Source: Treponemataceae bacterium
Lineage (GTDB): Bacteria > Spirochaetota > Spirochaetia > Treponematales > Rectinemataceae
Assembly (NCBI GenBank): GCA_963678065.2
Contig: CAXXVZ010000004.1
Location: forward strand, 224,001-288,000
DNA length: 64,000 nucleotides
Reading direction: 5' to 3'
Below are positions 23,979 through 63,612 of the stretch, one piece after another (position 1 is the stretch's first letter; every line of letters begins with the position of its first letter). The notes beneath the pieces were generated by a model. It saw only the letters and a list, made by a program, of their open reading frames with translations, had not been told where the DNA came from and did not search any database. A program made the position numbers and the translations under genes.

Positions 23979-25649
23979 TCACTCTCTGGCGGCGGGCTTC
24001 TTCGGCCCGAGCTTGACGAAGACCGCGTGGACGAGGGATGCGCCAATGAGTCCCAGGAAGGCGCTCATGGCGAAGCCGACGAGATTGCAGGCGAGGAAGA
24101 GCAGCAGGCCAGGGCCGGTTCCGAGCCCCGCCGAATCGGCGAAGTACAGCATTCCGAGGGAGGAGGCGAGGAAAATCCCCGCAAGAAGCATCTTGCGCCT
24201 CAGAAGCCTCGTCGAAGTCTTCTTGAACCGGATTTTTCCGTCAAAGAGCCCGGAACCGAAGGCGGCGAGGAGCGAGAAGGGCAGTATCCAGGCCAGCACT
24301 CCGATGGACGTGAGAATATCCGGCTTCCAGCCGGGCACGATGATGGCGGCCAGGGCGAGAACCAGCATGATCAGGGTGAGGGCCTGGGGGGCGTGGACGA
24401 TGATGGGGTGGATGTCGAGTTTCAGGATGAACGCCCGGTCGCGTTCGACCGGGTCGACGTAGGTTTCGAAAACCTTGGCGCTGACCCCGCAGGCCGGGCA
24501 GACATCCTTCAAGGCATCTTCGGGCATGATGTACCCGCAAATCTTGCAGCGGACCAGTTTTTTGTCGCCGGCCAGCTTTCCTATCAGATTTCCTATCAGA
24601 TTTCCGACCATGGATTTTTTTTGAGTCATATCCGCCTCCGGATTCAGGTCGTGGTAAAAATCGGCAGGGCGCACCTTGCCCTTGAAAATCGCGTAGACGA
24701 ACAGGGAGTAAACCGCCACGAGGCCGAGACCGACGCAGGCGATCGTTCCCAGGAGCCGCAGGCTGTACTCGGACGCGGCGGCTGAGTAGATCGTGAGACT
24801 CGCGGCGGGATTGGCGCTGTCGGCGACTAAAACCGGATACTGCGAGCTTCCCGCGGCGATGAAGACCCCTGCCGCCTGAAGGAAGGAAGCCGCGAATGCG
24901 AGTTTCTCGCGGCGCGCGCGGAAGACCGCGATCCCGGCGAGCCCGATAGCGCTCAGGATCGTCCCGACAAGGAATCCCGCCGATCCGCCCGACTTCCGTC
25001 CAAAGGCGACGAGGGCGAGGAAGAGGCCGGTAAGGAGGGCGGAGAGAGGCCATAGGTAGGCGAGAGAGCGCCCCGCGACGGCCCGAGCCTCTCTCTCCGT
25101 CTTGAGCCCGAGGTAGAGTGCCCCTTGCGAAAGGCTGAAGGCCACAAAGCAGAGTCCGGAGACGAGAGGCAGGAGTCCGAAGGCGGCGGCGAGGGAGCCG
25201 CCGTAGGGATCGGTTCCGGACAGAGGCATTCCACCGATGAAGAGGCCGAAAAGGTCCCCGACGAGGAAGGCCGCGAGAAACCCGCCCACCGTGAAAACCC
25301 TTTCCCAGACGGCGCGACTCGCAGGCGCCGCCTGTCTGAACCACATCTCGAAGGCGACGGGTCTCAGAATGAGGCAGGCCATCAGGATGAACACGAAGGG
25401 GTACAGGAGGGGAAGCGCGCCGGCGAAGACCGCCGGAAAAACGGCGAATGAAGACCCCACCGCGATGAGCCCCCAGAGTTCGTTCCCGTCCCATACAGGC
25501 CACATGCTCGAGAGCGCGTCGCGCTTCGCCGGGCCTTCCTTCGGCAGGAAGGGCAGCAGCATTCCGATTCCGAAATCGAATCCGTCGAGCGTCATGTACA
25601 TGCAGAAGGCTATCCCGATCAGGAAAAACCACAGTGTGTTGATATCCAT
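23979..25649 (-). CDS. cydB: Cytochrome bd oxidase subunit II fused to a rubredoxin-like domain and a 4-TM membrane domain
   Basis: LDGFDFG, PVWDGNELW and LRPVAFE motifs with the usual CydB end FKGKV. The frame continues without a stop into CKICGY...CPACG and HPIIVHAP plus four TM segments. Confidence 0.85.
   Translation of the reverse strand: MDINTLWFFLIGIAFCMYMTLDGFDFGIGMLLPFLPKEGPAKRDALSSMWPVWDGNELWGLIAVGSSFAVFPAVFAGALPLLYPFVFILMACLILRPVAFEMWFRQAAPASRAVWERVFTVGGFLAAFLVGDLFGLFIGGMPLSGTDPYGGSLAAAFGLLPLVSGLCFVAFSLSQGALYLGLKTEREARAVAGRSLAYLWPLSALLTGLFLALVAFGRKSGGSAGFLVGTILSAIGLAGIAVFRARREKLAFAASFLQAAGVFIAAGSSQYPVLVADSANPAASLTIYSAAASEYSLRLLGTIACVGLGLVAVYSLFVYAIFKGKVRPADFYHDLNPEADMTQKKSMVGNLIGNLIGKLAGDKKLVRCKICGYIMPEDALKDVCPACGVSAKVFETYVDPVERDRAFILKLDIHPIIVHAPQALTLIMLVLALAAIIVPGWKPDILTSIGVLAWILPFSLLAAFGSGLFDGKIRFKKTSTRLLRRKMLLAGIFLASSLGMLYFADSAGLGTGPGLLLFLACNLVGFAMSAFLGLIGASLVHAVFVKLGPKKPAARE
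24577..24605 (-). repeat. 12-bp tandem repeat (GNLI-GNLI-GKL) in the cydB fusion linker
   Basis: TTTCCTATCAGA x2 followed by TTTCC. Confidence 0.8.
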
Positions 25650-25650
25650 C

Positions 25651-27015
25651 TCACTTGTCTCCCAGGCCATTTCTGACCAGGCTCGGCAGGAACTTCAGGA
25701 AAAGTCCCAGGAGGATAGCGTACAGCGCGACGAGAAGGATGAGCGAGCCGAGGACATATGCCGCGGGAACCCCCGAGGCGGCGTCTTTAGTACGGAGAAT
25801 CCCGTAGATCGTCCAGGGTTGGCGTCCGAGTTCGGCCGTGACCCAGCCGAGATCGTTCGCGATGACCGGCAGCGGAATGGCGAAGGTCAGGACCTTGAGG
25901 AGCCAGGGATTCGACTCAAGCCTGTTCTTCCTGCGCAGGATCGCGGTGAAAAGGAGGAGGGCGATCATGAAGACCCCGATGAGCACCATGAAGTGGAAAG
26001 ACTGGAAGACAGTCTGGACGGCGGGCCACTGGTCCTTCGGAAAATCGTTCAGTCCCTTCGAGACGGCGGTAAAACTGCCCGATTCCAGAAAGCTCAAGCC
26101 CCCGGGAATGCCGAGCCCATAGGTCTTGCCTGCGGCGACATCGACGAAGCCGACTCCGTAGAGCGGAGCTCCGGCCTGCGTCTGGAAGATGCCTTCCATG
26201 GCCGGGCTCTTGGGGCCCTGCCAGCGGATGACCTCCATGATCTGGTTGTGGCCCCACAGGGGTTGAACGATGGCCGTCACGACGCACAGCGAGAGGGCGA
26301 TGCCCATCATCTTCCGCGCCGTGTCGGGCTTCCGGCCCTTCCTGAGATACCAGGCTCCGATTCCCAGCATCAGCATCCCTCCGGAAAGCCATGCCGCGGT
26401 GACGGTGTGCAGAAAGCGCCTGAGCATGGTGGGATTGAAGAAAACCCGGAAATAATCGCCGAGGACTATCCTGCCGTTCTCGATCGTAAATCCGTTCACG
26501 GCAGGATCGATCGTCCCGGAAGCCATGTACTGATCGAGAGCCTCGACGGTGTGGAAGGGGGTCTGCATCCAGGAATTGGCCGCGGTGATGATGAGGGCGG
26601 AGAGATGGGCCCCGAGAAACACCATGAAGGCCGAGAAAAGGTAGAGCCCCTTGCCCACCCGGGCGCGGCCGAAGAGGAGGATTCCGGCGAAGGCCGCCTC
26701 CATGGTAAATGCGACGATAGCCTCGATCGCGAGGTTGGCGCCGAGTAGCGGGCCGGCCATGGCCGAGAAGGCCGCCCAGTTCGTTCCGAAGGCGACAGGC
26801 AGGGTGATGCCTGTGGCGACGCCGAAGGCGAAGACGAGCCCGACCATGTTCACCGCCAGCTTCGATATCTCCCGGTACGGCTCCCTGCCTGTCCTGACAT
26901 GGAGGATTTCCACTGCCAGGATGTAGAAGGTGAGCCCCAGAGTGAGCGAGGGGAAAATAAAATGGATGCCCAGCGAAATTCCCGTCTGCATGCGTGAAAG
27001 CGTGGCCGCGTCCAT
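25651..27015 (-). CDS. cydA: Cytochrome bd oxidase subunit I (short Q-loop)
   Basis: HFIFP, FGTNW, NSWMQTP, RFLHT, KxxAME, FHFMV and ELGRQPW motifs. GGAGG RBS. Confidence 0.95.
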   Translation of the reverse strand: MDAATLSRMQTGISLGIHFIFPSLTLGLTFYILAVEILHVRTGREPYREISKLAVNMVGLVFAFGVATGITLPVAFGTNWAAFSAMAGPLLGANLAIEAIVAFTMEAAFAGILLFGRARVGKGLYLFSAFMVFLGAHLSALIITAANSWMQTPFHTVEALDQYMASGTIDPAVNGFTIENGRIVLGDYFRVFFNPTMLRRFLHTVTAAWLSGGMLMLGIGAWYLRKGRKPDTARKMMGIALSLCVVTAIVQPLWGHNQIMEVIRWQGPKSPAMEGIFQTQAGAPLYGVGFVDVAAGKTYGLGIPGGLSFLESGSFTAVSKGLNDFPKDQWPAVQTVFQSFHFMVLIGVFMIALLLFTAILRRKNRLESNPWLLKVLTFAIPLPVIANDLGWVTAELGRQPWTIYGILRTKDAASGVPAAYVLGSLILLVALYAILLGLFLKFLPSLVRNGLGDK

Positions 27016-28011: not shown

Positions 28012-28998
28012 TCAGATCTTCCGGGCGTACTCTTTTAAAAGGGCGGCATATATGCGGTAGTTTTCCAGACTGACATCGGGCGGCGTCTGATGGTCGCAGG
28101 AAGGTATGAACCCGCCGGAGCGCATCGCCGGCAGAAGCCTCTCGAACTCGTCGCGCATCGCGCCTTCACCCGACTTCATCACCCGCTTGTCGAATCCTCC
28201 GATAAACAAAAAATGTGGGTGCGCCTTCCGGAGCTCCGCGACATCGACGCCCGACTGCCGTTCCAGGGGCAGGATTCCGTCGACGCCGAGAGCCTCGAAC
28301 CAGGGTATGACGGGGCGGACATCGCCGTCCGAATCGACGAAAACCTTTATTCCGCGCGCGTGGAGGGCCGGAACGAGGACACGGTAAAAGGGCGCGAGAA
28401 ATTCCTCGAAGGCTGCGGGCGAGAGCATAGGCCCCAAGTTGTAGGACAGATCCTCGGCCAGGGTGACGAAATCGGGAACCGCGACGCCGCAGAACTCGTC
28501 CAGGATTTTCAGGTTGAATTCGAGCAATCGACTGTTCATCTCGTTCATGAGTCCGGGCTCGTCGTAGAAGGCGAGCAGATGATTCTCGATGCCGAGAAGC
28601 TCCCGCGGATGCCAGAAAAACCCCTCGAAACTCGCCCAGACGACAAGATCGCCGCGCTCCTGCGCTTCGCGCCAGCCGGCCACGCGGGCCTTGTCGAAAC
28701 GATCGATCCTGTACAGCTCCGGAAGCAATGCCCGGTATTCTTGCGCGCTCCGGACAATGGCGGCGCCGTGGGTCGCGGGTTTCGGACATCCGGGGCCCAG
28801 TGCCTCGATCCAGTATTGGCGGTGCTGGTCGAGACCGAATTCCGAAAAGAGGGCGCCAGGGACCGAGGAGGGCACAGAGAGTCCCTCGGAATTCCAGCGC
28901 TGAAGAGTCGATGTCCACCAGGAGGCCCATTCGATGACAGGCAGTCGATCCGGTCGGCCAAATCCCAAGACGGTGCAAAAACGTTCGCGCGTGTTCAT
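28012..28998 (-). CDS. URO-D/MtaA-superfamily protein (putative cobamide methyltransferase)
   Basis: MNTRERF..RPDRLP, EDLSYNLGPMLSP, DSDG, GGFDK and GGFIPSCDH motifs. Confidence 0.85.
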   Translation of the reverse strand: MNTRERFCTVLGFGRPDRLPVIEWASWWTSTLQRWNSEGLSVPSSVPGALFSEFGLDQHRQYWIEALGPGCPKPATHGAAIVRSAQEYRALLPELYRIDRFDKARVAGWREAQERGDLVVWASFEGFFWHPRELLGIENHLLAFYDEPGLMNEMNSRLLEFNLKILDEFCGVAVPDFVTLAEDLSYNLGPMLSPAAFEEFLAPFYRVLVPALHARGIKVFVDSDGDVRPVIPWFEALGVDGILPLERQSGVDVAELRKAHPHFLFIGGFDKRVMKSGEGAMRDEFERLLPAMRSGGFIPSCDHQTPPDVSLENYRIYAALLKEYARKI

Positions 28999-30021: not shown

Positions 30022-30996
30022 TCACTGCCCGAGAAGATGGCTCTGGTACTTTTCCGCGAACAGCGCGGGTTGCCCGCCCGTGTTCCAGAACAGGATGGTC
30101 TCGTCCTTGCGGAAATAACCCAGGCGGATGAGGTCGATGAGGCCGGCGGCCGCCCGCCCCGTGTAGACGGGGTCGAGGAGGAGGCCCTCGTACCGCGCGA
30201 AGAGCTGCACGGCCTCCCGCTCCGCCGGAGTCAGGACGCCGTATCCGGCCGAGCAGTAGGCGTCGGTCGCGAGCACATCGCCCGGCCCGAACGCGATCCT
30301 CTCGCCCAGCAGTTCCGAGGCATCCGAGGCGAGGGCGGACACGCGGGCTTTCAGCCAGCTCTCCGACTCGTCGATGCTGATTCCGAGCACCTTTCCCGCA
30401 TAGCCGAAGACGCGCGAGCCGAGAACGAGTCCCGCGTGTGTCCCGCCGGAGGAGGTGCCGAAGACCATGCAGTCGGCGCGAAGCCCCTGGCGCAGGAACT
30501 CGTCCACGGCGAAGGCGTAGCCGAGGGCGCCCGTCGGGCTCGATCCGCCGTATGGCACGAAATAGGGCTTTCCGCCCGAATCCTCGAGCTGTCTGAAGGT
30601 CTCCTTCTGGACGCGCTCGCGGTCGGCCCGCTCGGCGACCCATACGATCCTGGCCCCGAACAGGGTATCGAGGAGAAGGTTGGCCGAGAGTTCGGAGGGT
30701 TTTTCTCCGTTGAGGACGAGGACGCAGTCGAAGCCGCCGCGCGCAGCAGCAGCCGCGGTCTGGCGGCAGTGGTTGGACTGCGCAGCTCCCGCCGTGATGA
30801 GGGTGCGCGCCCCGCGCCCGCTCGCCTCTGCCACGAGGAATTCGAGTTTGCGCGTCTTGTTCCCGCCGAAGGCGAGCCCTGTCTGGTCATCTCTCTTGAC
30901 GAAGATCCTCGGCCCGCCGAGCAAATCCGACAATCGCGGCAGCTCTTCTATCGGAGTCGGCAGATGGGCGAAATGACTTCTCGGTACCGTTTTCAT
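30022..30996 (-). CDS. D-cysteine desulfhydrase-family PLP enzyme
   Basis: PTPIE, KRDD, GGNKTRKLEF (PLP lysine), QSNH, SGGT and DPVYTG motifs. TAATG coupling to the upstream gene. Confidence 0.88.
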   Translation of the reverse strand: MKTVPRSHFAHLPTPIEELPRLSDLLGGPRIFVKRDDQTGLAFGGNKTRKLEFLVAEASGRGARTLITAGAAQSNHCRQTAAAAARGGFDCVLVLNGEKPSELSANLLLDTLFGARIVWVAERADRERVQKETFRQLEDSGGKPYFVPYGGSSPTGALGYAFAVDEFLRQGLRADCMVFGTSSGGTHAGLVLGSRVFGYAGKVLGISIDESESWLKARVSALASDASELLGERIAFGPGDVLATDAYCSAGYGVLTPAEREAVQLFARYEGLLLDPVYTGRAAAGLIDLIRLGYFRKDETILFWNTGGQPALFAEKYQSHLLGQ

Positions 30997-32066
30997 TAGT
31001 CCCTCGGATATTGTTCGTAGATTTTTCCGTCCAGGAAAGCCTCGGCCGCGTCGGGAGCGAACTGGCTTCCCATGCAGGAGGCGATCTCCGAAATGGCCTT
31101 TTCCACGGGAAGGGCGGATCGGTAAGGGCGGGTAGAAGCCATGGCGTCGAAGGAATCTCCGACGGCGATGATCCTCGCGAGCGGGTCGATGGCCTCGCCC
31201 GCGAGCCCGTCGGGATAACCCTTGCCGTCCCAGCGTTCGTGGTGCTGGCGGACGGAAGGCAGACAGGGCGCGAAGAATTCGACGTGGGAGAGTATCTGGG
31301 CTCCCGTGACAGGGTGCTGCCGGATGAGCTCGAACTCCTCGGGCTCGAGCTTCGTGCTCTTGTTGAGCACGCTCTCGGGGATGCCGATCTTGCCGATGTC
31401 GTGCAGGAGGGAGGAGTACTCGAGAATCTCGATGTTCCGGGCCGAGAGGCCGAGCACCTTGGCTATGCCGACGGCGACGAGGCGGACCCGCTGACAATGG
31501 CCCCTTGTGTACTGATCCTTCGCCTCGATGGTCTCCGCGAGGACCTTGACCGTCTCCATGTTGGTCCGCCGGAGCTTGACATAGGCGTCGTTGAGCTCCA
31601 TCGTCCTCGCCTCGACCTTGAGTTCGAGCTGGAGGCGGTATTCCTCGTTGCGGCGGGCGAGTTCGGCGTTCTCCATGAGAAGCTCGCGGTGCGAGAAGGC
31701 CCTGTCTATGGCCTGGAGCAGTTCTTCGAGCCGGACAGGCTTGACGAGATAGTCGAAGGCTCCGTCGCGCATGGACTCAATGCCGTTGGAGAGGTCGTTG
31801 AAGGCTGTCAGCATTATGACGGGGACGGTCGGATTCCGTTTTTTGATGTGAGGAAGCGCCTCGCGGCCCGTCATCACCGGCATCCTTATGTCGAGAAGCA
31901 CGCAATCGGGGTCGAAATTTCCCGAATCCAGGGCATCGAGGGCCTCGCGGCCGTCGCGCGCGACGGAAACGGCGAATCCGGATTTTTCAAGTCCGAGCGA
32001 GAGCACTTTCCGCATCGCGGCGTCGTCGTCGACGACGAGAATATGGCGCTTGTCCGTTGGATCCAT
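30996..32066 (-). CDS. Response regulator with HD-GYP phosphodiesterase domain (RpfG-like)
   Basis: REC domain (VDDD, LLDIRMP, KP), coiled coil, HDIGK and HHERWDGKGYPDGL. Confidence 0.93.
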   Translation of the reverse strand: MDPTDKRHILVVDDDAAMRKVLSLGLEKSGFAVSVARDGREALDALDSGNFDPDCVLLDIRMPVMTGREALPHIKKRNPTVPVIMLTAFNDLSNGIESMRDGAFDYLVKPVRLEELLQAIDRAFSHRELLMENAELARRNEEYRLQLELKVEARTMELNDAYVKLRRTNMETVKVLAETIEAKDQYTRGHCQRVRLVAVGIAKVLGLSARNIEILEYSSLLHDIGKIGIPESVLNKSTKLEPEEFELIRQHPVTGAQILSHVEFFAPCLPSVRQHHERWDGKGYPDGLAGEAIDPLARIIAVGDSFDAMASTRPYRSALPVEKAISEIASCMGSQFAPDAAEAFLDGKIYEQYPRD

Positions 32067-32283
32067 GGTTGTCCTTGTCCGTCGATTCCGGCTTTCGGAA
32101 AATCACTGTCACTTTAGTGATCGTCATCTCACACTCATAGTTTAGTATAAAAATAATCTTTGAGGTACCACCTGCCGATAATTTCATCGTGATTTGTACA
32201 AATAGCCCGATACCATTGGGTTTTTACATATGGTATAGTTTCTGCGATCCGCCTGCGAGGCGGATGGGTTCAAGGGGGATTTG

Positions 32284-35200
32284 ATGATTCTGGACGCAAC
32301 ATCGCTGGTGCCCGCACTGTCCTTCCTCATATACATCCCATTCGCCATTTTCGGACTCTACAATCACAAAGAAAAAGTAAATATCTATTTTTTGGTCTAC
32401 ATGTCTTTCATGGCCCTGTGGAGCTTCGGCTCCTTCATGATGCACGCCAATACGGGCATCTTCACGCCCCTCATCTGGAACCGCGTCATGCTGATCGGCA
32501 TGCTCGGGGGGCCGATCTCGATTTTCGGGACCCTCATGGGCCTGTCGGGCGCGGAGAAGCAGCGCTACAACACCATTCTCTACATCGGTTACGCGATCTA
32601 CATCATCCTCCTGTACTTCAATCTCTCCGGAGGGATTGTCTCCGACGCCGGATTCGACGCGAACGGTTTCCACTACACCCTCGGCAAGGGTTCGTTCATC
32701 GCCTACTCCCTCTCCTATTTCTATCTGATACTGACTATCTTCCTCCTCACCCGCCAGCTGAAGGCGAACACGAACCGTTTCGCCCGGAAGACCCTGAGAC
32801 TCGTCACCGCCGGAGCCTTCATCATGCTGGTCGGCATCGCGGTAAACCTCTACGCCCCCCTCGGCCGCTACCCCATCGACCTCTTCTCCGCCACTATCAA
32901 CGCGGCCATCATCTTCTATGCCGTCTACAAGTACCGGCTCGCAAACTACTCAGCCGTCGTCCTCAACATACTTCTGATCATCTTCGTGGCCGTCCTCAGC
33001 GCGCTGGTATTCGCGGTGATATTCCTCGTCGTCTTCCATCTCGAACGCGCTATCCCCTTTCAGAACATCTTCCTGTTATCCCTCATCCTCGGATTCATCT
33101 CCTCGGTGATTCTGTCGCCGCTGCGAAACACCACTCTCATGTTTCTGGAGAAGATATACGGCGGAAAGACATTCAACTATTACAAGGGCCTGCGCGACTT
33201 TTCGGCCAGTCTCACCTCCATCGTGGACCTCGAGACTCTCGGAGACCTCACGGTGGAGAAAGTGATGTCCACCTTCAGCCTGGAATGGGCCTGCATGCTC
33301 GTCAACGATTACGGTTCGCGGAGCTACAAGATCAATATGGCCAAAAACGTCCCTTTTCGCGGCGGGACGCTGGATGGGCACGTCCAGAATGTCTCGCTGA
33401 AGCGTTCGGAAGAGCTCACCAAGGAGTTCGGCAGCCACAGCACCCAGGTGAAAGACAACATTCCCGCGCACAGGTCGAAGGGCAGCCACAAGATACTCCT
33501 CACCTCGATGGATCAGGGCGAGGAGGAGGTCGAGGTCAGTCTCATCGTGCCTCTGCGCTTCAAGGAAAGGCTAAACGGCTTCCTCATTCTCGGCCCGCGC
33601 TCCGACAAGGACTACTACAACCAGTTCGACACCGACATCCTCCAGCTTCTTTCGGACCAGTGCTCAGTGGCCCTCGAGAACGCGATCTCCTTCGAGCGCC
33701 TGCGCCAGCAGCAGAAGCGCCTGCAGTACGTGAACAACGAGCTGGTCATCAGCCGCAACAAGCTCGAGGCTTTCTTCGACGGCATCACTACCCCGATCGC
33801 GATCCAGGACATCAACTACAACATCGTCGCGGCCAACTACGCCGCGAGGCGGTACTTCGAGCTCTCGGACGACAGCCTCGTGGGCAAGAAGTGCTACAAG
33901 GTCTTCTTCGACCGGGACCGGCCCTGCAACGAGTGCATGGCCCAGGACTGTCTCCACTCCCGCCTGCCCTTCACGGCCGAGCGTCAGGACGCGAAAGGCC
34001 TCATCACCTTCGCCCTCAACTTCTACCCCATTCCCGTGCCGAAGGATTCGACGATGATCTTCCTCGAGTTCTTCCAGGACATCACGAAGCAGAAAACCCT
34101 GCAGGAAGAGCTCATCCAGTCTGAAAAGCTCGCCGGAATCGGAACTCTCGTATCCGGAATAGCCCACGAGATCAACAACCCTCTGGGCGGAATCATCGGC
34201 ACGGCGGAGCTCATGCTCCCGGAAACCGGGGAGGGCACGAGTCTCAGAGAGTATACGACGGACATCATCAAATACGCCCAGACCGCCGCCGAGGTCATAT
34301 CCGACCTCATGACCTATTCGCGCAAGACAAAGACGGGCTCCGAACCGGTCGACGTCACCGAGATACTCGAGACCTCGCTCAAGCTGGCCATGCGTGGAAT
34401 CGATTTCGGCAAGATCACGATAAAGAAGAACTACAGCCAGATCGATCCGGTTCAGGCCAACTCGACCGAGCTCCAGCAGGTTTTCCTCAACCTCATCGTG
34501 AACGCCAGCCAGGCCATGGACGGGAAAGGGAGCCTCACCCTGGAATGCCTCCAGGAAGATGGCGACATCTTCGTTTCAGTCCGGGATACGGGACACGGCA
34601 TCGACAAGAAGAATCTCGACAAGATATTCAACCCCTTCTTCACGACGAAGGAGCCGGGAGCGGGCACGGGGCTCGGTCTCAGCATCGCCCACCACATCGT
34701 GTCCAAGCTGGGCGGCCGCATTCTCATCGACAGCAAGGAGGGAGAGGGAAGCATTTTCCGCGTCATGCTCCCGGCGGCCGGAGGAGACCGCGAGCGCCTG
34801 CGCTTCATCCACGCCACCGAGAAGCGCGAAGAGGAAGATTGTTTCTTCATCCAGCGAAAAGTTCTGGTCGGCGAGAAGGGTTACCAGGAAGAGACGATCA
34901 GGAGGAAGGAAGACGAGAGAGCCTTCCACGTCTCGGCCTACAAGGGCATGCAGCCGGTCGGTACGGTGACCCTCATCACGAAAAACATGGCGGGACACGT
35001 TCCGATAGAGGAGAATTTCGACATCAGTACCTGGCTCGACGACTCCAACTACGCGGAGATCGATCGCCTCGCTGTCATGAAGGAAGACAGGGGAGGTATC
35101 GTTCCCTTGAGCCTCATGACCCTCGCCTACCTCTACGCGCGAGCGGAAGGGGCGCGCAAGATCTTCCTCGATGTGTTCTCCGACGAGACGAAACTCATAA

Positions 35201-35451
35201 AGATGTACGAAAAACTCGGTTTCCAGACCATCGGGAACTACAGCGCGCCCCTGCCCTGCACGGTCATGATGATGGACCACCAGTCAGAGTACGAGAGCAA
35301 GGCGACGCGCATGGAACACTTCGTCAAGCCATTTTTCTCCCGCCTTCAGCCGAGGATCGATTTCCGGGGCCACGACAGGGAGATGGTTCAATCGGTGATC
35401 AACAGGATCTCGCGCAATTTTGCCAGGGAAACAGAGGGCGAACAGGAATGA
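32284..35451 (+). CDS. Membrane sensor histidine kinase (multi-TM, GAF, Cys-rich PAS, HisKA, HATPase) with a C-terminal FeeM/LuxI-like GNAT domain
   Basis: About ten N-terminal TM segments, GAF (LIVPL..GFLILG), [28 protein letters not shown] and GTGLGL. About 220 extra residues follow with VGTVTL, EIDRLAV..RG and MYEKLGF. Confidence 0.88.
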
Positions 35452-35646: not shown

Positions 35647-36282
35647 TCAGGCTGCGGCAAAAATGGATGCGACGACTTCGGCCGCGCTCGCGGCATCGGC
35701 CGTATAATAATCGGCTCCGATGGACTGACGGTAGGAGTCGGTGACGGGGGCTCCTCCGATCATGATCTTGATGCTGCCGCGGATCCCGGCTTCATCGGCC
35801 TTCTGGATTATGTTCTTCATCTCGGGCATGGTCGTGGTGAGGAGTGCCGAGCACATGATGATGGACGCGCCCTGCTCTTTCGCGGAGGTGATGAACCTGT
35901 CCGCCGGAACATCGGTGCCGAGATCCACGACCTCGACGCCGCGGCCTTCGACCATCATCCGGACGAGGTTCTTGCCGATGTCGTGGAGGTCGCCCTTGAC
36001 CGTGCCGATGACGACCTTGCCCTTGGCCTTGACACCCTCGGAGACGAGGAAGGGTTTGAGGATGGCCATTCCGCCGTTCATGGCGCGCGCGGCGATGAGG
36101 ACTTCGGGAACGAAGACCTCATTCTTCTTGAACTTCCCGCCGATGACCGTCATGCCGTTCATGAGGGCGTCGAGAATCTCGCCCGCGCCGATCTTTGCGT
36201 CGAGGGCGGACTGGACTCTTTCCTTGGTTTCCTTCAGCTTGCCAGCCTGCAGGAATGTGGAAATCTCTTCGAGTACGGACAT
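35647..36282 (-). CDS. Corrinoid (B12-binding) protein of a methyltransferase system
   Basis: Cap domain FVPEVL, then GDLHDIGKNLV, SALLTTT and GGAP motifs. GGGAGG RBS. Confidence 0.95.
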   Translation of the reverse strand: MSVLEEISTFLQAGKLKETKERVQSALDAKIGAGEILDALMNGMTVIGGKFKKNEVFVPEVLIAARAMNGGMAILKPFLVSEGVKAKGKVVIGTVKGDLHDIGKNLVRMMVEGRGVEVVDLGTDVPADRFITSAKEQGASIIMCSALLTTTMPEMKNIIQKADEAGIRGSIKIMIGGAPVTDSYRQSIGADYYTADAASAAEVVASIFAAA

Positions 36283-36462
36283 GATTGCCTCCCAAATGAC
36301 CTTTCTGACGTTCTTCCGGAGGATGCTTCTGGCAGCATCTCTTTTTTCTTAATAATAATAAATGCGCATTTTCCGGCTGTCTCTCATTTTTTTATGAATT
36401 GCGACAGTCCTATCGTAAAATATTCGTATACCGCGGATTAAAGCCAAAGTATCATCGTGACC

Positions 36463-38325
36463 ATGGAACACCGAATTTCCGGCCTGCGCGGAGAGAAGCT
36501 TTTCGAAGCCCTCGTCAAAGCCGGCCTTCCCCTGGAATCGCCCTGCGGAGGCGCGGGAACCTGCGGGAAGTGCCGCGTCCGCGTCCTGTCCTCTGACCTC
36601 GATGAGCCTGCCGGCAGCTCCGCTTTCGCGGGCGGAGCCGATCCTTCGCAGGAAGCAAAGACCATCTGGACGGAGAGGCTCTCCTGCAAGACCCGCTTTG
36701 TCCGGGACGGCTTCGCCCTCGTCGACGTGGAGGAGAAGGCCATGCGCATCGTCGACCGCTTCGAGCTGCCCATGCCGGAGGGCGCCGCCGCGCTCAAGGT
36801 CTTCGATGTCATCCTGCCCGAGCCCCGGCTCGAAAACTCAGGGTCGGAGCTCGCGCGCCTGGAAGAAGCGACAGGCATCCAGGCGGGATCCTCCCTCGAG
36901 CTGCCGAGGGCGCTGGCCCAGGCATTGGCCAGGACAGGGACCGCGGAGCCCGGCGCCGCCGATACCGCCGCGCGGGAGCTCCGTCTCATCCTGCAGGAAG
37001 GGGGCCGGCTCTCCCTCGCTGGCGGCAAGGATGTTCCGGCCCTCGCCGCCGCCGTCGATATAGGGACGACGACAGTCGCCGTCCGCCTCCTTAACGCCGG
37101 AACGGGAGAGGCCATCGCCTCGGGAGCCCAGGCCAATGTCCAGAAATGGGCGGGGGCCGATGTCATCTCCAGGATTGGCACCTGTGCCTCCCCGGAAGCC
37201 TTTTCGCGTCTGTCCTCCGGCATCGCGGCCCAGATCGGCAAGATGATTCTCTCCCTCGCCGCAGGAGCGGGAAGAGCGGCTTCCGCGGTGAAGCGCATCG
37301 TCATCGCCGGCAACCCCACGATGCTCCACATCCTCGCCGGTGTGTATCCCGCGGGCATAGCGCGCGCGCCCTTCGTCCCCGTCTTCACGGGGGCCTTCGA
37401 CCTCGCGCCCGCAGACTCGCCGCTCGGCGGACTCTTCGGCGGAGACTGCCGGACCATCCTCGTCCCGGGCATCTCGGCCTACGTCGGCGCGGACCTCGTC
37501 GCGGGGGCTCTCGCCTGCGGACTCGGCCAGGGGCCATCGGAGAAGGAGCCCGCCCTCCTTCTCGACCTCGGCACGAACGGCGAGATCATGCTCTTCACGC
37601 GGGCCGGATCTTTGTGCACATCGGCCGCCGCGGGGCCGGCCTTCGAAGGCGCCTCGATCGAGTTCGGCCTACCATCCATCCCAGGCGCGATAGACCATGT
37701 GCGGCTCGAAAACGGCGGAATCGCGACGACCGTGATCGGCTCGGGCGCAGCGACGGGCATCTGCGGCTCGGGAATCCTCGACGCCGTCGCCGCCCTTCTG
37801 GACTGCGGGGCAGTGGACGAGACGGGCAGGATAGATCCGGATGGCGCTGCCGCAGCCGGAGCGGCCGGAGATCATGCCCATCTTGGCCCGGAGTGGCTCA
37901 CGGAATACAAGGGCAAGCCGGCCGTCATCCTCGACCGTACATCGCGAATTCTCATAACCCAGAACGATCTGCGACAGGTTCAGCTCGCCAAGGCGGCCGT
38001 CGCCGCGGGCGTGGATATCCTCCTCGCCCAGGCCGGACTGACGGCCCGCGAAGTGAGGACCGTCTACCTCGCGGGCGGATTCGGTTCCCGCCTGGACGCC
38101 CATTCGGCCCTGAGGATAGGATTGCTCCACAGGGACTTTGCCGGACGCATCGAGGCGGTGGGCAATTCTTCCCTGGCCGGCGCGGAAATCGTCGCCCTCC
38201 GCGGAAATGCCCTTGAAACCTGCTCCCGCATCGCGCGGGAATGCCGCGCGATCGAACTTTCGGGACGACTCGACTTCGTTTCCGCTTTCTCCGAAGCCAT
38301 GTTCTTTCCCGAATCCGAATACTGA
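36463..38325 (+). CDS. ASKHA-type reductive activator of corrinoid proteins (RACo) with N-terminal 2Fe-2S domain
   Basis: CGGAGTCGKC...RLSC, DIGTTTV, GADVISRI, DLGTNGE, AAGPAFEG and AGGFG motifs. Alternative GTG start at 36457. Confidence 0.9.
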   Translation: MEHRISGLRGEKLFEALVKAGLPLESPCGGAGTCGKCRVRVLSSDLDEPAGSSAFAGGADPSQEAKTIWTERLSCKTRFVRDGFALVDVEEKAMRIVDRFELPMPEGAAALKVFDVILPEPRLENSGSELARLEEATGIQAGSSLELPRALAQALARTGTAEPGAADTAARELRLILQEGGRLSLAGGKDVPALAAAVDIGTTTVAVRLLNAGTGEAIASGAQANVQKWAGADVISRIGTCASPEAFSRLSSGIAAQIGKMILSLAAGAGRAASAVKRIVIAGNPTMLHILAGVYPAGIARAPFVPVFTGAFDLAPADSPLGGLFGGDCRTILVPGISAYVGADLVAGALACGLGQGPSEKEPALLLDLGTNGEIMLFTRAGSLCTSAAAGPAFEGASIEFGLPSIPGAIDHVRLENGGIATTVIGSGAATGICGSGILDAVAALLDCGAVDETGRIDPDGAAAAGAAGDHAHLGPEWLTEYKGKPAVILDRTSRILITQNDLRQVQLAKAAVAAGVDILLAQAGLTAREVRTVYLAGGFGSRLDAHSALRIGLLHRDFAGRIEAVGNSSLAGAEIVALRGNALETCSRIARECRAIELSGRLDFVSAFSEAMFFPESEY

Positions 38326-59580: not shown

Positions 59581-61085
59581 CACCTGCCCCCTTCGCCGTT
59601 GGCCGCGAGCAGAACCGATTCCTCGGAGCACTCTTCGTACTTCATCTCGCGGGTGAACCTTCCGTTGCACATGATCATGACCCTGTCGGAGAGGCCGACG
59701 AGTTCGGGCAGATCCGAAGAGATGAGGATGACCGAGGTTCCGGCCCGCGCGAGCTTTTCGATCGACTGGTGGATGATCATCTTGGCGCCGATGTCGACGC
59801 CGCGGGTCGGTTCGTCCAGAATGAGAACCTTGGGTGAACTCGCGAGCCACTTCGCGAGGAGTACCTTCTGCTGGTTGCCGCCCGAGAGGTTGCCGACGGT
59901 CCGCGAAGGATCGGGCGGGTAGATGGCGAGTTCCTTTATGAGCGAGTCGACCGTGGTCCCACCCGCGCGCTTCGAGTAGACGGAGAATTTCGAGAGGCGG
60001 TGGATAATGGGCGAAAGAATGTTGTCGTCGACGGCGAGCCTGAGGGCGAGCCCTTCGACCTTGCGGTCCTCGGTAAGGTAGGCGATGCCCTCGTCGACGC
60101 GCGAGGCCATCGAGCGGCCTTTTACCCGCTTTCCATCCAGCTCGACCGCGCCTTCGTCGGCCCGGTCGAGGCCGACGAGTACGCGGGCCAGCTCCGAGCG
60201 GCCGGCTCCCGACAGGCCGCAGATACCCATGATTTCGCCGCGCCTGACCTCGAAGCTGACATCGTGGAAGAAGCCGTAGCGCGTCAGCTTCGCGACCTTG
60301 AAGCGGGATGGACCGATGGCGCGCTTGTCGCGGTTGTAGAATTCCTTGACAGAGCGGCCGACCATCATCTGGACGATCTCTTCCCGCGTGACTTCGACGA
60401 TCTCCTTCGTGGCTACCTTCTTTCCGTCGCGCATCACCGTGACGCGGTCGGCTATCCTGAAGATCTCCGGAAGATGGTGCGAAATGAAAACGATGGCGAG
60501 ACCCCGCTTCCTGAGAGTGTCGATGATTCCGAATAACCTCTCGACTTCCTCGCGGGAGAGCGCGCTCGTGGGTTCGTCCATGACGAGAATGCAGGGTTTC
60601 GTTCCGAGGACCTTCGCGATTTCGACGAGCTGGGCCTCGTGCTGGCTGATGTCCTCTATGGGAAGTCCCGGGTCGAGTTCGAGGCCGACCGAAGCGAGGA
60701 GACGTCTGGCCTCGGCATCGGCGGCCGCGCGGTCGAGAAGCCCGCGTTTTTTCGGAAGCCTGCCTGCGAGAAGATTCTCAGTGATGCTGATGGGCCTCGC
60801 GAGACTCAGCTCCTGGTAGATCATTCCGATGCCGTATTTTCGGGCCTCGGAGGGAGAGTGCAGGAGAACCTTCTTGTCGTTGATGAAGATGTCTCCGGTG
60901 TAGTCGTCGAATGATCCGGCGAGCATCTTCATGAGGGTCGATTTGCCCGCCCCGTTTTCCCCGACGAGGGCGTGCACTTCGCCCGCGTAAACCTGGAAGG
61001 TGACGTTGTCGACGGCTATCGTTCCCGGATAGCGTTTGCCGACTCCTTTCATCTCCAGCGCGACCCCTATCTCGTGTTCGCTCAC
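59580..61085 (-). CDS. Monosaccharide ABC transporter ATP-binding protein (RbsA-like, two ATPase domains)
   Basis: GTGA overlap at 61085. GENGAGKST, MDEPT, LSGGNQQK and LDEPTRG motifs. Confidence 0.95.
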   Translation of the reverse strand: MSEHEIGVALEMKGVGKRYPGTIAVDNVTFQVYAGEVHALVGENGAGKSTLMKMLAGSFDDYTGDIFINDKKVLLHSPSEARKYGIGMIYQELSLARPISITENLLAGRLPKKRGLLDRAAADAEARRLLASVGLELDPGLPIEDISQHEAQLVEIAKVLGTKPCILVMDEPTSALSREEVERLFGIIDTLRKRGLAIVFISHHLPEIFRIADRVTVMRDGKKVATKEIVEVTREEIVQMMVGRSVKEFYNRDKRAIGPSRFKVAKLTRYGFFHDVSFEVRRGEIMGICGLSGAGRSELARVLVGLDRADEGAVELDGKRVKGRSMASRVDEGIAYLTEDRKVEGLALRLAVDDNILSPIIHRLSKFSVYSKRAGGTTVDSLIKELAIYPPDPSRTVGNLSGGNQQKVLLAKWLASSPKVLILDEPTRGVDIGAKMIIHQSIEKLARAGTSVILISSDLPELVGLSDRVMIMCNGRFTREMKYEECSEESVLLAANGEGGR

Positions 61086-62329
61086 TTCGCGCTCCCGTTG
61101 AATTGTGCGATCGCATCGTACATCGCGATGATGTTGGCGGGCGGGACATCGGGCAGGATGTTGTGGACCGTGTTGAACACGAATCCGCCGCCGGCCGAGA
61201 ATATTTCGAGCCTGCGCTTCACCTGCTCCGCGACCTGCGCGGGTGAGCCTGAATTGAGCACCTCGCGCGTGTCGACGCCGCCGCCCCAGAAACAGATATC
61301 TTTCCCGAATTCTTTTTTGAGTTTTTCCGGCCCCATGTCCTTCGCGTTCGTCTGGACCGGATTGAGAATGTCGTAGCCCACATCGATGAGGTCGGGCATG
61401 AGGCTGTAGAGCGATCCGCATGAATGAAGGAAGGTCTTCATGGAGCTGTGCTTCTTCACGTAGGCCACGAGTTCGGCGTGACGGGGCTTGAAGAGGCTCC
61501 GGTAGGTATCCGGGTTCATGAAGGGCCCCCCGTCGTGGCCGAGATCGTCCCCGAAGCGGATGATGTCGGCCACGTCGCCGACGGCCTCGCAGACCTTCTC
61601 CAGAGTCGCGAGGTGGCTCTCCATGAGGGCGTCCAGAAGCCGACCGACCTCTTCGGGCTCGCACAGGAGGTCCATGAGGAAATTGTCGATGCGCCGGAGG
61701 AAGGTCCCCCACTCGAAGAGGTTGCAGCCGGCGACGATCACGAGGGCGCGGTCGGACTTCGCCTTGAGCGCGAGCGCACGGGCGCGGAGATCCGCCCAGA
61801 AGTCATCGGCGGCGGCGTGATTCCAGGGCGAGTGCACGAGGGCGGACCAGAGAACCGCGCCCATCGCCTCTGGCAGGCCGGAATACTCGGCGGGATAGCC
61901 TTCCAGGTATGGAAAGCAGCGCTGGTCGTAGAAGGTCGCGCCCGCAGGCCGCTCGGCGATGAGCCGGCCAGAGCGATCGCAGGCGTAGAAGGAATCGCCG
62001 CGCCGCACCGGCTTGAACCAGGCCGGGTACTGCACCTTCCAGCCGCCGGGAAGCTCGATGTCGCTCCAGTCCGAGGGACTTTCGTCGAAGGCGCGCCCTA
62101 TGTCGACCACATCCACGCCGAAGCGGCCTAAGGCCCAGTCGTCGGGCTGGGCGAGTTCCTGCACGACGTCGTAGACTTTCACGGGCAGGTCGGAGTGTCC
62201 CAACTCGGCCGCGAGGCGCGAATAGGCGATCGCCGAGATGCCGGAGCTCGGCGTGGCTCCGAGGTCGACCGGAACTTTGTCCGGCTCCCGGTGCTCCACG
62301 GCCGAGAGGATGCGTTCGCGGGAAGTCAT
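61082..62329 (-). CDS. URO-D/MtaA-family cobamide methyltransferase
   Basis: MTSRER..PDKVPVD, FGDDLG, HSCG, NPVQ, FWGGGVDT and NTVHNI motifs. Confidence 0.88.
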   Translation of the reverse strand: MTSRERILSAVEHREPDKVPVDLGATPSSGISAIAYSRLAAELGHSDLPVKVYDVVQELAQPDDWALGRFGVDVVDIGRAFDESPSDWSDIELPGGWKVQYPAWFKPVRRGDSFYACDRSGRLIAERPAGATFYDQRCFPYLEGYPAEYSGLPEAMGAVLWSALVHSPWNHAAADDFWADLRARALALKAKSDRALVIVAGCNLFEWGTFLRRIDNFLMDLLCEPEEVGRLLDALMESHLATLEKVCEAVGDVADIIRFGDDLGHDGGPFMNPDTYRSLFKPRHAELVAYVKKHSSMKTFLHSCGSLYSLMPDLIDVGYDILNPVQTNAKDMGPEKLKKEFGKDICFWGGGVDTREVLNSGSPAQVAEQVKRRLEIFSAGGGFVFNTVHNILPDVPPANIIAMYDAIAQFNGSAK

Positions 62330-63612
62330 CAGGCTTTGCCCACCTGGCCGGCATCGACGACATCACCGGCGGCGCCCGATGCATCGCCGGACGGACCGCC
62401 CGCGGCGAAGGCCCCGCGCCCGGCCGATTTTCCGGCGCGGAACAGGTCCATCTCGGGCATGTCGTACTCGCCGAGCTCGAGAGGATATTTTCCGTATTTC
62501 TTCACGAGATCGACGACGAAGCCGTAGCGCTCGGCCGAGACATTGCTCGGCACCGAGTGGTCGGACTGCACGATGTAGCCGCCGCCCTTGGCCGCGTTGA
62601 GCTTTCGCATAACCTGGGCTTTCAGCTCGTCCAGGGAGGCGTTCGCCCAGGCGAGAGCGTCGATATTGCCGCAGAAACCCATCTCGTGGCCGTACTGCTT
62701 GCGGATTTCGACGACATCGAGGCCGGACTTGGCCTCCAGGGGATTGTAGGCGTCGAGGCCTATCTCGATGAAATCGTCGTAGATCATAGTCGCGTTGCCG
62801 CAGCCGTGGTAGATGACGGGGATGCCTGCATCGTGGCAGACTCTGATCTGCTCCTTCACGATGGGCTTGAAATGCTCGCGCCAGAATACCGGCGAAAAGA
62901 GCATGCCGTTGCGGTAGGCCACGTCGCCCCAGATGACCATGCCGTCGAGCATGCCGTCCGCGGCCTTTATCTGGGCCTTCGTCATCTCGGCGAGGAAGCT
63001 GCCGACCCTCTCTATGAAGGCGCCCAGCTCATCGGGATACAGGCCCATCCACATGAAGGTGTTCTCGCTGCCGATGATGCGCCAGAGCTGCTCGTGACCC
63101 TCGCAGATCGAGCCGTAGACGGGGAAATCGGGATGAATGCTCTTGACGGTGTCGATCCAGGCGGGGGAATTGCGGGTGATGACGTCGCCCACGCCGGCGA
63201 GCTGGTTGTCGCCGGCACAGAAGTAGCGCCTGTCGTCCCAGGGATCGTCGAACTGGAAGGCCTCCATCTTCTCGATCGAGTCCGTGCCGAAGGACTCGAA
63301 GTAGGGCATCTGCGTGCCGAGCTTCTTGCGGATGACGGCCTCGTACCCGGTCCTGAGGATGATGTCGTCCTCGTGCTCGGAGAGGATTTCGAAGGGTTTG
63401 ATGTGCGGGTCCATGTTCGGGGTCGTGGATACCCAGTCGAGGTCGTAGTAGCGGTAGACGTCCACGTCGTCCGCGAGCCCGAGCTCCTTTCTCCATCGCT
63501 GGATGAAGGTCGTCCAGAAAAAATCGCTCACGGGAACCCTGTCCGCCTCTTCGTGGCGCAGGGTCGCGTTCATCCTTTCGAGCTTCTGCAGGCACTTCTC
63601 GGTTCTCTTCAT
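62329..63612 (-). CDS. URO-D/MtaA-family cobamide methyltransferase
   Basis: DRVP, WGDVAY, YHGCG, NPLEAK, CGNID and QSDHSVP motifs. TGATG coupling to the next gene. Confidence 0.88.
   Translation of the reverse strand: MKRTEKCLQKLERMNATLRHEEADRVPVSDFFWTTFIQRWRKELGLADDVDVYRYYDLDWVSTTPNMDPHIKPFEILSEHEDDIILRTGYEAVIRKKLGTQMPYFESFGTDSIEKMEAFQFDDPWDDRRYFCAGDNQLAGVGDVITRNSPAWIDTVKSIHPDFPVYGSICEGHEQLWRIIGSENTFMWMGLYPDELGAFIERVGSFLAEMTKAQIKAADGMLDGMVIWGDVAYRNGMLFSPVFWREHFKPIVKEQIRVCHDAGIPVIYHGCGNATMIYDDFIEIGLDAYNPLEAKSGLDVVEIRKQYGHEMGFCGNIDALAWANASLDELKAQVMRKLNAAKGGGYIVQSDHSVPSNVSAERYGFVVDLVKKYGKYPLELGEYDMPEMDLFRAGKSAGRGAFAAGGPSGDASGAAGDVVDAGQVGKA

Follow-up and report, generated by a model that had tools for sequence, protein, structure and literature searches.

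The closest working model for the locus described here may, by analogy, be the RpfF-RpfC-RpfG system of Xanthomonas, in which a lipid-signal synthase is tied to a multi-helix membrane kinase and to a REC-HD-GYP output, with RpfC binding and repressing RpfF (PMC5391125). N-acyl amino acid synthases (NAS) have been proposed as makers of bacterial messengers; the catalytic residue of the FeeM type is Glu95 in FeeM and Glu103 in Nas354, where it is essential, and some members carry signalling domains or are under signalling control (PilZ, cAMP) (PMC4897644). In the OlsH-OlsG-OlsI operon of Singulisphaera acidiphila, the bacterial GH3 enzyme OlsH makes N-acyl ornithine and is encoded with the methyltransferase OlsG (PMC12493201; PMC12971839).

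We have analysed a window of 64,000 nucleotides from a Treponemataceae bacterium (assembly GCA_963678065.2, contig CAXXVZ010000004.1, positions 224,001 to 288,000 of the forward strand). A sequence-only reading had singled out in it a sensor kinase fused to a putative signal synthase, divergent from an HD-GYP regulator and a pyridoxal phosphate (PLP) enzyme, as a possible self-contained signalling circuit. The kinase-acyltransferase and the divergent REC-HD-GYP regulator account for two of the three genes of a conserved spirochaete cassette. The pair is conserved, but 'self-contained' is incomplete as a description, because the cassette has an ICMT/PEMT-like third gene that the window lacks. 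Since the FeeM-like fusion, the regulator and the methyltransferase-like gene are conserved together across species, the cassette may well make and sense a methylated fatty-amide signal.

The kinase-acyltransferase fusion

The kinase gene is a single uninterrupted frame on the forward strand (32281-35451), encoding 1056 aa from a TTG at 32281 or 1055 aa from the likely start, the ATG one codon on at 32284, which is preceded by a AAGGGGGA site; residue numbers here are counted from the TTG. The product of 32284-35451 comprises a membrane sensor region (32284-33183), made up of a HisKA_7TM bundle of predicted GPCR-like (G-protein-coupled receptor-like) topology and two further helices, then a GAF domain, a PAS domain (33757-34095), a HisKA and HATPase core (34111-34785) and a FeeM-like GNAT acyltransferase domain (34786-35448; 221 aa, residues 836-1056), which has a helical extension at its C terminus. 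Pfam matches cover residues 13-222 (HisKA_7TM), 622-683 (HisKA) and 728-832 (HATPase_c); the GAF match, at 24.9 bits, is below its cut-off and the PAS match lies around its own. The Pfam scan detected neither REC nor HPt in the kinase. In what follows G000 is the source genome and the window is part of its contig C4; L-, P- and G-numbers denote the loci, proteins and genomes compared.

The fusion is real and conserved. A protein search with residues 836-1056, restricted to long proteins, gave 152 long homologues out of 688 candidates; 120 of them were listed, all kinases, and among these 120 every source name that gives a taxon is that of a spirochaete. The fusion matched in 33 of 101 related genomes, strongly in 31, with zero stops inside the 31 strong matches, whose open frames measure 1025-1145 aa in 26 cases and are shorter in five, near contig ends. 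It is carried by 11/401 genomes sampled across the phylum. Scanning of a one-genome-per-species collection confirmed 136 loci, and the locus counts given here rest on the best 80 of these (77 spirochaete-titled, two titled otherwise), which include most contigs from the earlier genome sets, so that the sets are not independent. At 78 of the 80 loci the acyltransferase lies in the kinase core's own frame, the exceptions being one contig end and one frame break. Contigs from two public runs, each belonging to a different study, span the junction without differences; one of the runs may be the source sample. Two metatranscriptomes contain scattered contigs of 150-280 nt, with small word shares, that match the regulator and PLP genes and the GNAT portion of the kinase gene; such contigs cannot show transcription. 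The sequence-only reading had held that a GNAT encoded as a separate gene in relatives, or an assembly error, would count against the fusion; an artefact of this kind is rejected below. A search for short GNAT forms returned kinase-sized fragments, two stand-alone inputs to the query alignment and ordinary 140-aa GNATs. The synteny search that it had proposed shows the architecture and its HD-GYP linkage recurring across dozens of spirochaete species, including the cultured Rectinema subterraneum SURF-ANA1 (locus L070). Its remark that no characterised kinase with this architecture is known to it also stands, in that literature searches, with most subscription papers outside their reach, found no description of either the architecture or the cassette.

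What kind of acyltransferase is attached to the kinase? Taken alone, the GNAT domain scores 42.2 bits against Pfam FeeM (PF21926; cut-off 27) and 38.3 bits against Acetyltransf_1 (cut-off 20.7). The fold comparison with FeeM, LuxI and other GNATs that had been proposed was made with a predicted model (pLDDT 88). The best structural alignment is to FeeM (Z 17.2 over 172 residues, root-mean-square deviation 2.7), with YjcF tied within 1 Z unit (Z 16.4, 137 aligned) and the N-acyl homoserine lactone (AHL) synthases BjaI, RpaI, TofI and LasI at Z 13.7-14.3; structural identity with the FeeM-type synthase is 17-19%. In Foldseek searches YjcF and SACOL1063 lead by E-value and FeeM by query-normalised TM-score (0.62). 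Likeness in sequence to these last two proteins comes through the first 60 residues of the domain, over which they are its best match. Unlike it, they are without its 20-residue beta3-beta4 insertion, which, among the five alignments shown, FeeM alone spans, in one piece, when the central part is the query. An ESM Atlas search with the domain returned generic GNAT clusters only.

Conservation was assessed on an alignment limited to the 125 proteins with 950 aa or more. Glu926 (E926, codon 35056-35058) is invariant in 125/125; its counterpart in the deposited FeeM chain 2G0B is the Glu at position 96, which corresponds to Glu95 if a one-residue offset is assumed. Also invariant are R929, R937, D964, Q858, K860, E865, Y868 and E871, and the segment QRKxLxGEKGY. 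Near-invariant columns number 42/165 in the GNAT core and 38/145 in the HATPase, and on this alignment the acyltransferase core is conserved as strongly as the HATPase of the kinase. The canonical coenzyme A (CoA) P-loop is absent: the segment reads R937-G-G/S-I-V/I-P, at both 940 and 942 the four residues most often seen, which account for at least 120/125, do not include Gly, and the R/Q-x-x-G-x-G/A loop of the CoA-dependent YjcF/SACOL1063 type, kept in those proteins as RxxGxG, is not present. A non-canonical P-loop is a trait of carrier-protein-dependent GNATs (PMC11685415). Both an acyl carrier protein (ACP) and FabF are encoded in G000; FabF is found in 97/101 relatives, and its presence therefore does not discriminate.

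The LuxI set, which we take to be an N-terminal Arg, Phe and Trp together with a beta3 Arg, as is visible in the BjaI alignment, is replaced in the spirochaete domain by Q858, L862 and Y868 in 125/125 and by S, T or I at position 897 (commonly given here as S/T897), while the LuxI Asp, Glu and Arg equivalents are retained as D878, E926 and R929. Because of its FeeM fold, its catalytic Glu, its absent CoA P-loop and its replaced LuxI positions, the domain is, by predicted anatomy, FeeM-like and not a LuxI. The FeeM-type pattern first suggested from the sequence has thus been borne out, whereas the LuxI likeness survives in the fold and in three residues but fails at the N-terminal and beta3 positions; the GNAT motifs quoted in its support are all present, except that three residues, not two, separate AEIDRLAV from DRG. 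The domain shares with the FeeM-type NAS the fold with its beta3-beta4 insertion, the position of the catalytic Glu and the lack of a canonical CoA P-loop. It differs in being fused to a membrane histidine kinase, in its C-terminal helical extension and QRKxLxGEKGY segment, and in having a methyltransferase and an HD-GYP regulator as partners.

Stand-alone GNAT relatives, at 25-35% identity, include REC-GNAT (P0135) and PilZ-GNAT (P0146) fusions. At L141:382-1567 another lies just downstream of a class I S-adenosylmethionine-dependent methyltransferase, and a distant match, P0175, is a 666-aa fusion of PAP2_C, a FeeM-like GNAT and a class I/II aminotransferase. The stand-alone relative P0152 and a weakly related 7TM kinase, P0351, both bear the name Candidatus Margulisiibacteriota and are possibly an unfused version.

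The remainder of the protein has the features of a sensor histidine kinase. The phospho-acceptor H629 (codon 34165-34167) is present in 124/125 kinases, and the N, G1, F and G2 boxes (N737/N741, D769-x-G771-x-G773, F786 and G795-x-G797-L-G799) in at least 97% of the 125. In the PAS domain, C538-x10-C549-x2-C552 (33892-33936) is invariant in 125/125 and a fourth Cys occurs in 96/125; these cysteines may possibly form a metal or Fe-S redox site. The three-Cys PAS domain of NreB senses sulfide (PMC13478379); its spacing, CX2CX11C, differs from that seen here. Comparison of the PAS domain with the PDB by sequence gave no meaningful match, and a literature search on the cysteine spacing found nothing. 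The HisKA_7TM region (32284-32950) is predicted to have seven-helix topology with a short beta-hairpin loop, and its model aligns with designed GPCR folds, AdipoR2 and GPCRs at Z 15-17 with 5-15% identity, with zero Foldseek matches at E<=0.001. A profile built from the first 300 residues of the fusion proteins is applied to other kinases below.

The three-gene cassette and its GH3 counterpart

The regulator (30996-32066, reverse strand) is of the RpfG type, with Pfam matches to REC (107 bits) and HD_5 (126 bits). It carries the REC residues D59, T87 and K109, then E181, H190, H222, D223, H251, H275, H276 and D304, a GYP motif at 283-285 and R313-x-Y-R316. These fit the motif list for HD-GYP phosphodiesterases (bioRxiv 10.1101/2021.11.05.467447), and HD, HHExh(D/N)GxGYP, RxY[K/R], the N-terminal Glu and the REC Asp/Thr/Lys are each found in at least 95% of 56 sequences as well as in the window's copy. 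Of the 80 loci, 66 have the full sensor region and 58 of those at least 1.7 kb upstream; at these 58 informative loci the REC-HD-GYP gene occurs in 54 and a methyltransferase-like gene is present in 50 (49 with both, five with the regulator only, one with the methyltransferase only, three with neither). The divergent regulator with intact HD and GYP motifs that was initially reported is therefore confirmed as a conserved partner. G000 also has 15 frames with an RxGG(D/E)EF motif and nine other HD-GYP-like frames, and cyclic di-GMP (c-di-GMP) signalling is therefore in place.

The third gene, situated between regulator and kinase, encodes a membrane protein of 180-220 aa with an RHP motif and weak ICMT/PEMT matches, and on sequence it resembles ICMT at the superfamily level only. 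It shares the RHP motif and a C-terminal Y-x-x-Y...P pattern with ICMT, PEMT, LmtA and MddA, but has QD, QE or ED where EE is the usual pair in membrane methyltransferases of the ICMT type, and it scores far below all NCBIfam cut-offs; PEMT is above cut-off in three GH3-side or unlinked relatives. Strong matches occur in 16/401 phylum genomes (E<=2e-21; next 8e-11). These include all 11 that bear the fusion, in six of which, G000 among them, the gene is unlinked; the other five comprise one contig-truncated cassette and four GH3 cassettes. Among the 101 relatives it is found in 29/31 fusion-bearing genomes, with seven further strong matches in two truncated cassettes and five GH3 cassettes. 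In G000 the paralogue is at C4:290795-291379 (L159:6796-7377), about 32 kb away and 2.8 kb past the window end, among genes of the uroporphyrinogen-decarboxylase family and convergent with a DUF1638 gene. In a tree of 42 methyltransferases, six unlinked copies join the GH3-type ones with support of 92/79, short of strong, a grouping which suggests that either methyltransferase paralogue can serve the cassette.

The GH3 cassettes have the order methyltransferase, GH3 ligase, HisKA_7TM-GAF-PAS kinase. Eight distinct examples were found in other spirochaete genomes (L142-L147, L149 and L150), and their kinases differ in output type (HisKA_2, or hybrids that carry REC). On 8/8 GH3-cassette kinases the sensor profile reaches 74-92 bits, whereas no other HisKA_7TM protein of G000 exceeds 18 bits, and W47, S51, N189 and Y197-P198-x-D200 are common to the fusion and GH3-cassette kinases; 24/27 further homologues have the same motif without a GNAT. 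Because methyltransferase family and sensor subfamily are shared with the GH3 cassettes, two apparently unrelated, putatively amide-forming enzymes, a FeeM-like GNAT and a GH3 ligase, fill one cassette slot. The genome G243 carries the fusion, an unlinked methyltransferase and a broken GH3 gene in two frame pieces (C45:10988-12588); no GH3 gene was found in G000 with the single query used. Against the OlsH model, which has a cut-off of 620, the sister-cassette GH3 reaches 22.6 bits. As in the operon of S. acidiphila, a putatively amide-forming enzyme stands beside a methyltransferase, and in the sister cassette this enzyme is likewise of the GH3 type; unlike that operon, the spirochaete cassettes always have a sensor kinase adjacent. 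No O-acyltransferase was found among the conserved neighbour clusters annotated (17 representatives), unlinked copies in the genomes not being searched for.

One lineage, represented by L096, L100 and L102 (76-96% identical), offers a natural experiment in loss. Orthologues of the regulator and methyltransferase are absent genome-wide from these draft genomes. The kinases have changed at 13-15/50 conserved sensor sites, including S51, H55, W66, N67 and N189, and at 16-18/72 kinase sites, including the F and G2 boxes, yet at just 3-4/44 GNAT sites; the other 64 sequences changed at most five sensor, four kinase and two GNAT sites. This co-decay fits a kinase dedicated to the regulator, a sensor tied to the cassette product and a GNAT with its own job. 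These proteins are possibly pseudokinase-anchored enzymes, with decayed sensor and ATP-binding sites and a retained GNAT. What is added here is the link between the two cassettes through the shared sensor subfamily, the unlinked-paralogue pattern, the co-decay lineage and the exclusion of the PLP enzyme.

The copy in the window and its neighbours

The divergent region between regulator and kinase (32067-32280, 214 nt), the slot occupied by the ICMT/PEMT-like gene in relatives, contained no detectable methyltransferase remnant, and none was detected in the window. It had been read as an AT-rich divergent promoter. The gap is indeed AT-rich (44% GC, 34% in its core), but only ordinarily so, because other short gaps in the window are alike (35-41%) and a promoter scan gave two sites against 1.1 +/- 1.3 in shuffles, which is background.

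The PLP gene (30996-30022, reverse strand) overlaps the regulator stop as TAATG, as originally described, a coupling seen in this genome only. It is a PALP-family gene; CuyA and D-cysteine desulfhydrase models are the closest, as its first assignment implied, but it lies below every NCBIfam cut-off. Homologues in 36/101 relatives are unlinked to the kinase (in G029, 553 kb away on the same contig), and orthologues were not found in the genera g18 (0/7) and g20 (0/7), which carry the kinase in 7/7 and 5/7. Because 0/80 kinase loci carry the gene, as do 0/30 in a second set, the PLP enzyme stands outside the system as a lineage-specific bystander, not a cassette member. In most family relatives examined the cassette comes just after exbB-exbD and a tonB-like gene, often with an oxidoreductase following. 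The corresponding slot in G000 (C4 about 776.7-779.6 kb) holds other genes, and the pair has therefore moved and its PLP neighbour is recent. By eye, C4:776823-779565 appears to encode a membrane pyrophosphatase and a HotDog thioesterase.

The surroundings of the relocated pair deserve brief mention. Around it lie genes of a kind typical for methyl-transfer clusters, namely corrinoid-protein, RACo activator and URO-D-family genes (28012-28998, 35647-38325 and 61082-63612, the first two stretches domain-scanned and the last assigned by eye and a 30% match); such genes are not near the cassette in relatives. At 23979-27015, on the reverse strand, is by eye a cytochrome bd-like pair whose second subunit extends into a CxxC...CxxC rubredoxin-like segment and a membrane domain. 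A diacylglycerol-kinase-family gene is near the cassette in 10/31 family loci, mostly directly downstream of the kinase (e.g. L045:11095-12153), and elsewhere in G000; this may be plain genome order.

Proposed function and alternatives

In the first step that we propose, and consider likely, the GNAT domain would acylate an amino acid or a comparable amine, with acyl-ACP as the probable donor. The membrane methyltransferase, supplied in G000 by the unlinked paralogue, would then methylate the product, for which the balance is slightly favourable. That the seven-helix domain would bind this lipid-like product or read its methylation state is an evenly poised proposition. Phosphorylation of D59 of the REC-HD-GYP protein by H629, altering c-di-GMP hydrolysis, is very likely. 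Joining the two in one chain would tie synthesis to the state of the kinase, as RpfF is controlled through its binding by RpfC. In G000 the pair has moved away from where it originally lay, no longer has a linked methyltransferase and now sits next to a PLP gene that is unrelated to it. Taken as a whole, the chain in which the cassette makes a methylated N-acyl amide, senses its product and lowers c-di-GMP output is put forward tentatively, as slightly more doubtful than not. More speculative still, and rather doubtful, is the extension to an autoinducer cassette family of free-living spirochaetes, in which a GPCR-like kinase would sense a methylated N-acyl amino acid made by a fused FeeM-like domain or a separate GH3 enzyme.

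The likeness to the Rpf system claimed for the locus, through its diffusible signal factor circuit, is fair in its logic, and a REC-HD-GYP protein is paired with a membrane kinase at 54/58 informative loci, but the defining synthase and kinase types differ. RpfF belongs to the crotonase family, whereas the spirochaete synthase candidate is a GNAT and is covalently fused; the spirochaete kinase lacks the REC and HPt domains of the Rpf hybrid kinase and has HisKA_7TM-GAF-PAS inputs; and a methyltransferase belongs to the spirochaete cassette.

Several observations weigh against our proposal. By sequence the nearest solved proteins are the CoA-dependent SACOL1063 and YjcF, not FeeM, and an Arg kept in at least 90% of wider relatives is the invariant Gln, Q858, of the kinase-fused GNAT. 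The GPCR-like resemblance of the sensor model is one of shape only, and having a 7TM fold in common says nothing of function. For the methyltransferase the assignment is weak: 9/15 members reach ICMT at E<=0.1, PDB 4a2n is matched at E=0.38, and the best scores are 24.1 bits against a cut-off of 160 for NCBIfam NF040696 and 19.5 against 24 for Pfam ICMT. The window has no linked methyltransferase gene, the G000 copy falls, on a long branch, among those of the GH3 type, and no methyltransferase was detected in G015 (92% complete, 380 contigs). Co-occurrence counts overstate independence because the genomes are kin, and the co-decay of L096, L100 and L102 is a single event. At L072 the regulator is lost with the kinase intact, and loss and decay are therefore not immediate partners.

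Might the acyltransferase and methyltransferase instead make an aminolipid or secreted metabolite as a kinase-controlled output, with the sensor reading, for example, membrane state, and no autoinducer loop? We regard this as unlikely, though it can draw on known NAS under second-messenger control (NAS-PilZ fusions and the cAMP-activated NasP; PMC4897644), on the REC and PilZ fusions of the stand-alone relatives P0135 and P0146, on the trimethyl-ornithine lipid that a GH3 enzyme and a methyltransferase build in Singulisphaera (PMC12493201), and on the persistence of the GNAT where the kinase has decayed. The lack of an O-acyltransferase among the annotated conserved neighbours argues the other way, as do the sensor subfamily that accompanies GNAT and GH3 enzymes alike and the decay of the sensor's conserved polar membrane residues upon methyltransferase loss. 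Less probable again is a different role for the GNAT, either acylation of a protein (kinase, regulator or some other target) or, with no catalysis, service as an internal sensor through binding of acyl-CoA or acyl-ACP; the methyltransferase would then act on a protein or lipid that has nothing to do with it. ICMT itself acts on proteins, YjcF and SACOL1063 are the closest solved sequences, many protein N-acetyltransferases are close behind in the fold lists, and Q858 stands in place of a widely conserved Arg. Yet the FeeM-type insertion and Glu are kept without a CoA P-loop, the equivalent slot is taken by GH3 ligases, enzymes that join small acids to amino acids, and the GNAT is retained after kinase decay.

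The original notion of a single circuit that includes the PLP enzyme alongside kinase and regulator, in which the desulfhydrase would turn over an amino-acid substrate or, in a variant of the idea, supply sulfide, has become very improbable: the TAATG overlap suggests co-translation in G000, and the three invariant PAS cysteines recall the sulfide-sensing domain of NreB in number though not in spacing (PMC13478379), but the gene's absence from both sets of kinase loci, with its orthologues elsewhere or not found in g18 and g20, tells against membership. Frame breaks just before the GNAT domain at L132, and further upstream at L076, L105 and L135, are what could be cited for a fusion produced by read-through or misassembly. 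We reject that explanation, to which we assign next to no probability, given the 152 long homologues, the 78/80 loci fused in frame, the 31 stop-free strong matches and the public contigs that bridge the junction.

Finally, literature searches found no dedicated receptor for the products of N-acyl amino acid synthases. The cassette joins a candidate synthase, modifier, receptor and second-messenger output, and so makes the receptor question directly testable, while the exchange of GNAT and GH3 in one slot predicts the chemistry independently of the annotation of either enzyme. If the methylated-amide proposal is true, synthase and receptor would be united in one polypeptide, the HisKA_7TM domain would acquire a ligand class, and N-acyl amino acid synthases would have a dedicated receptor tied to them.

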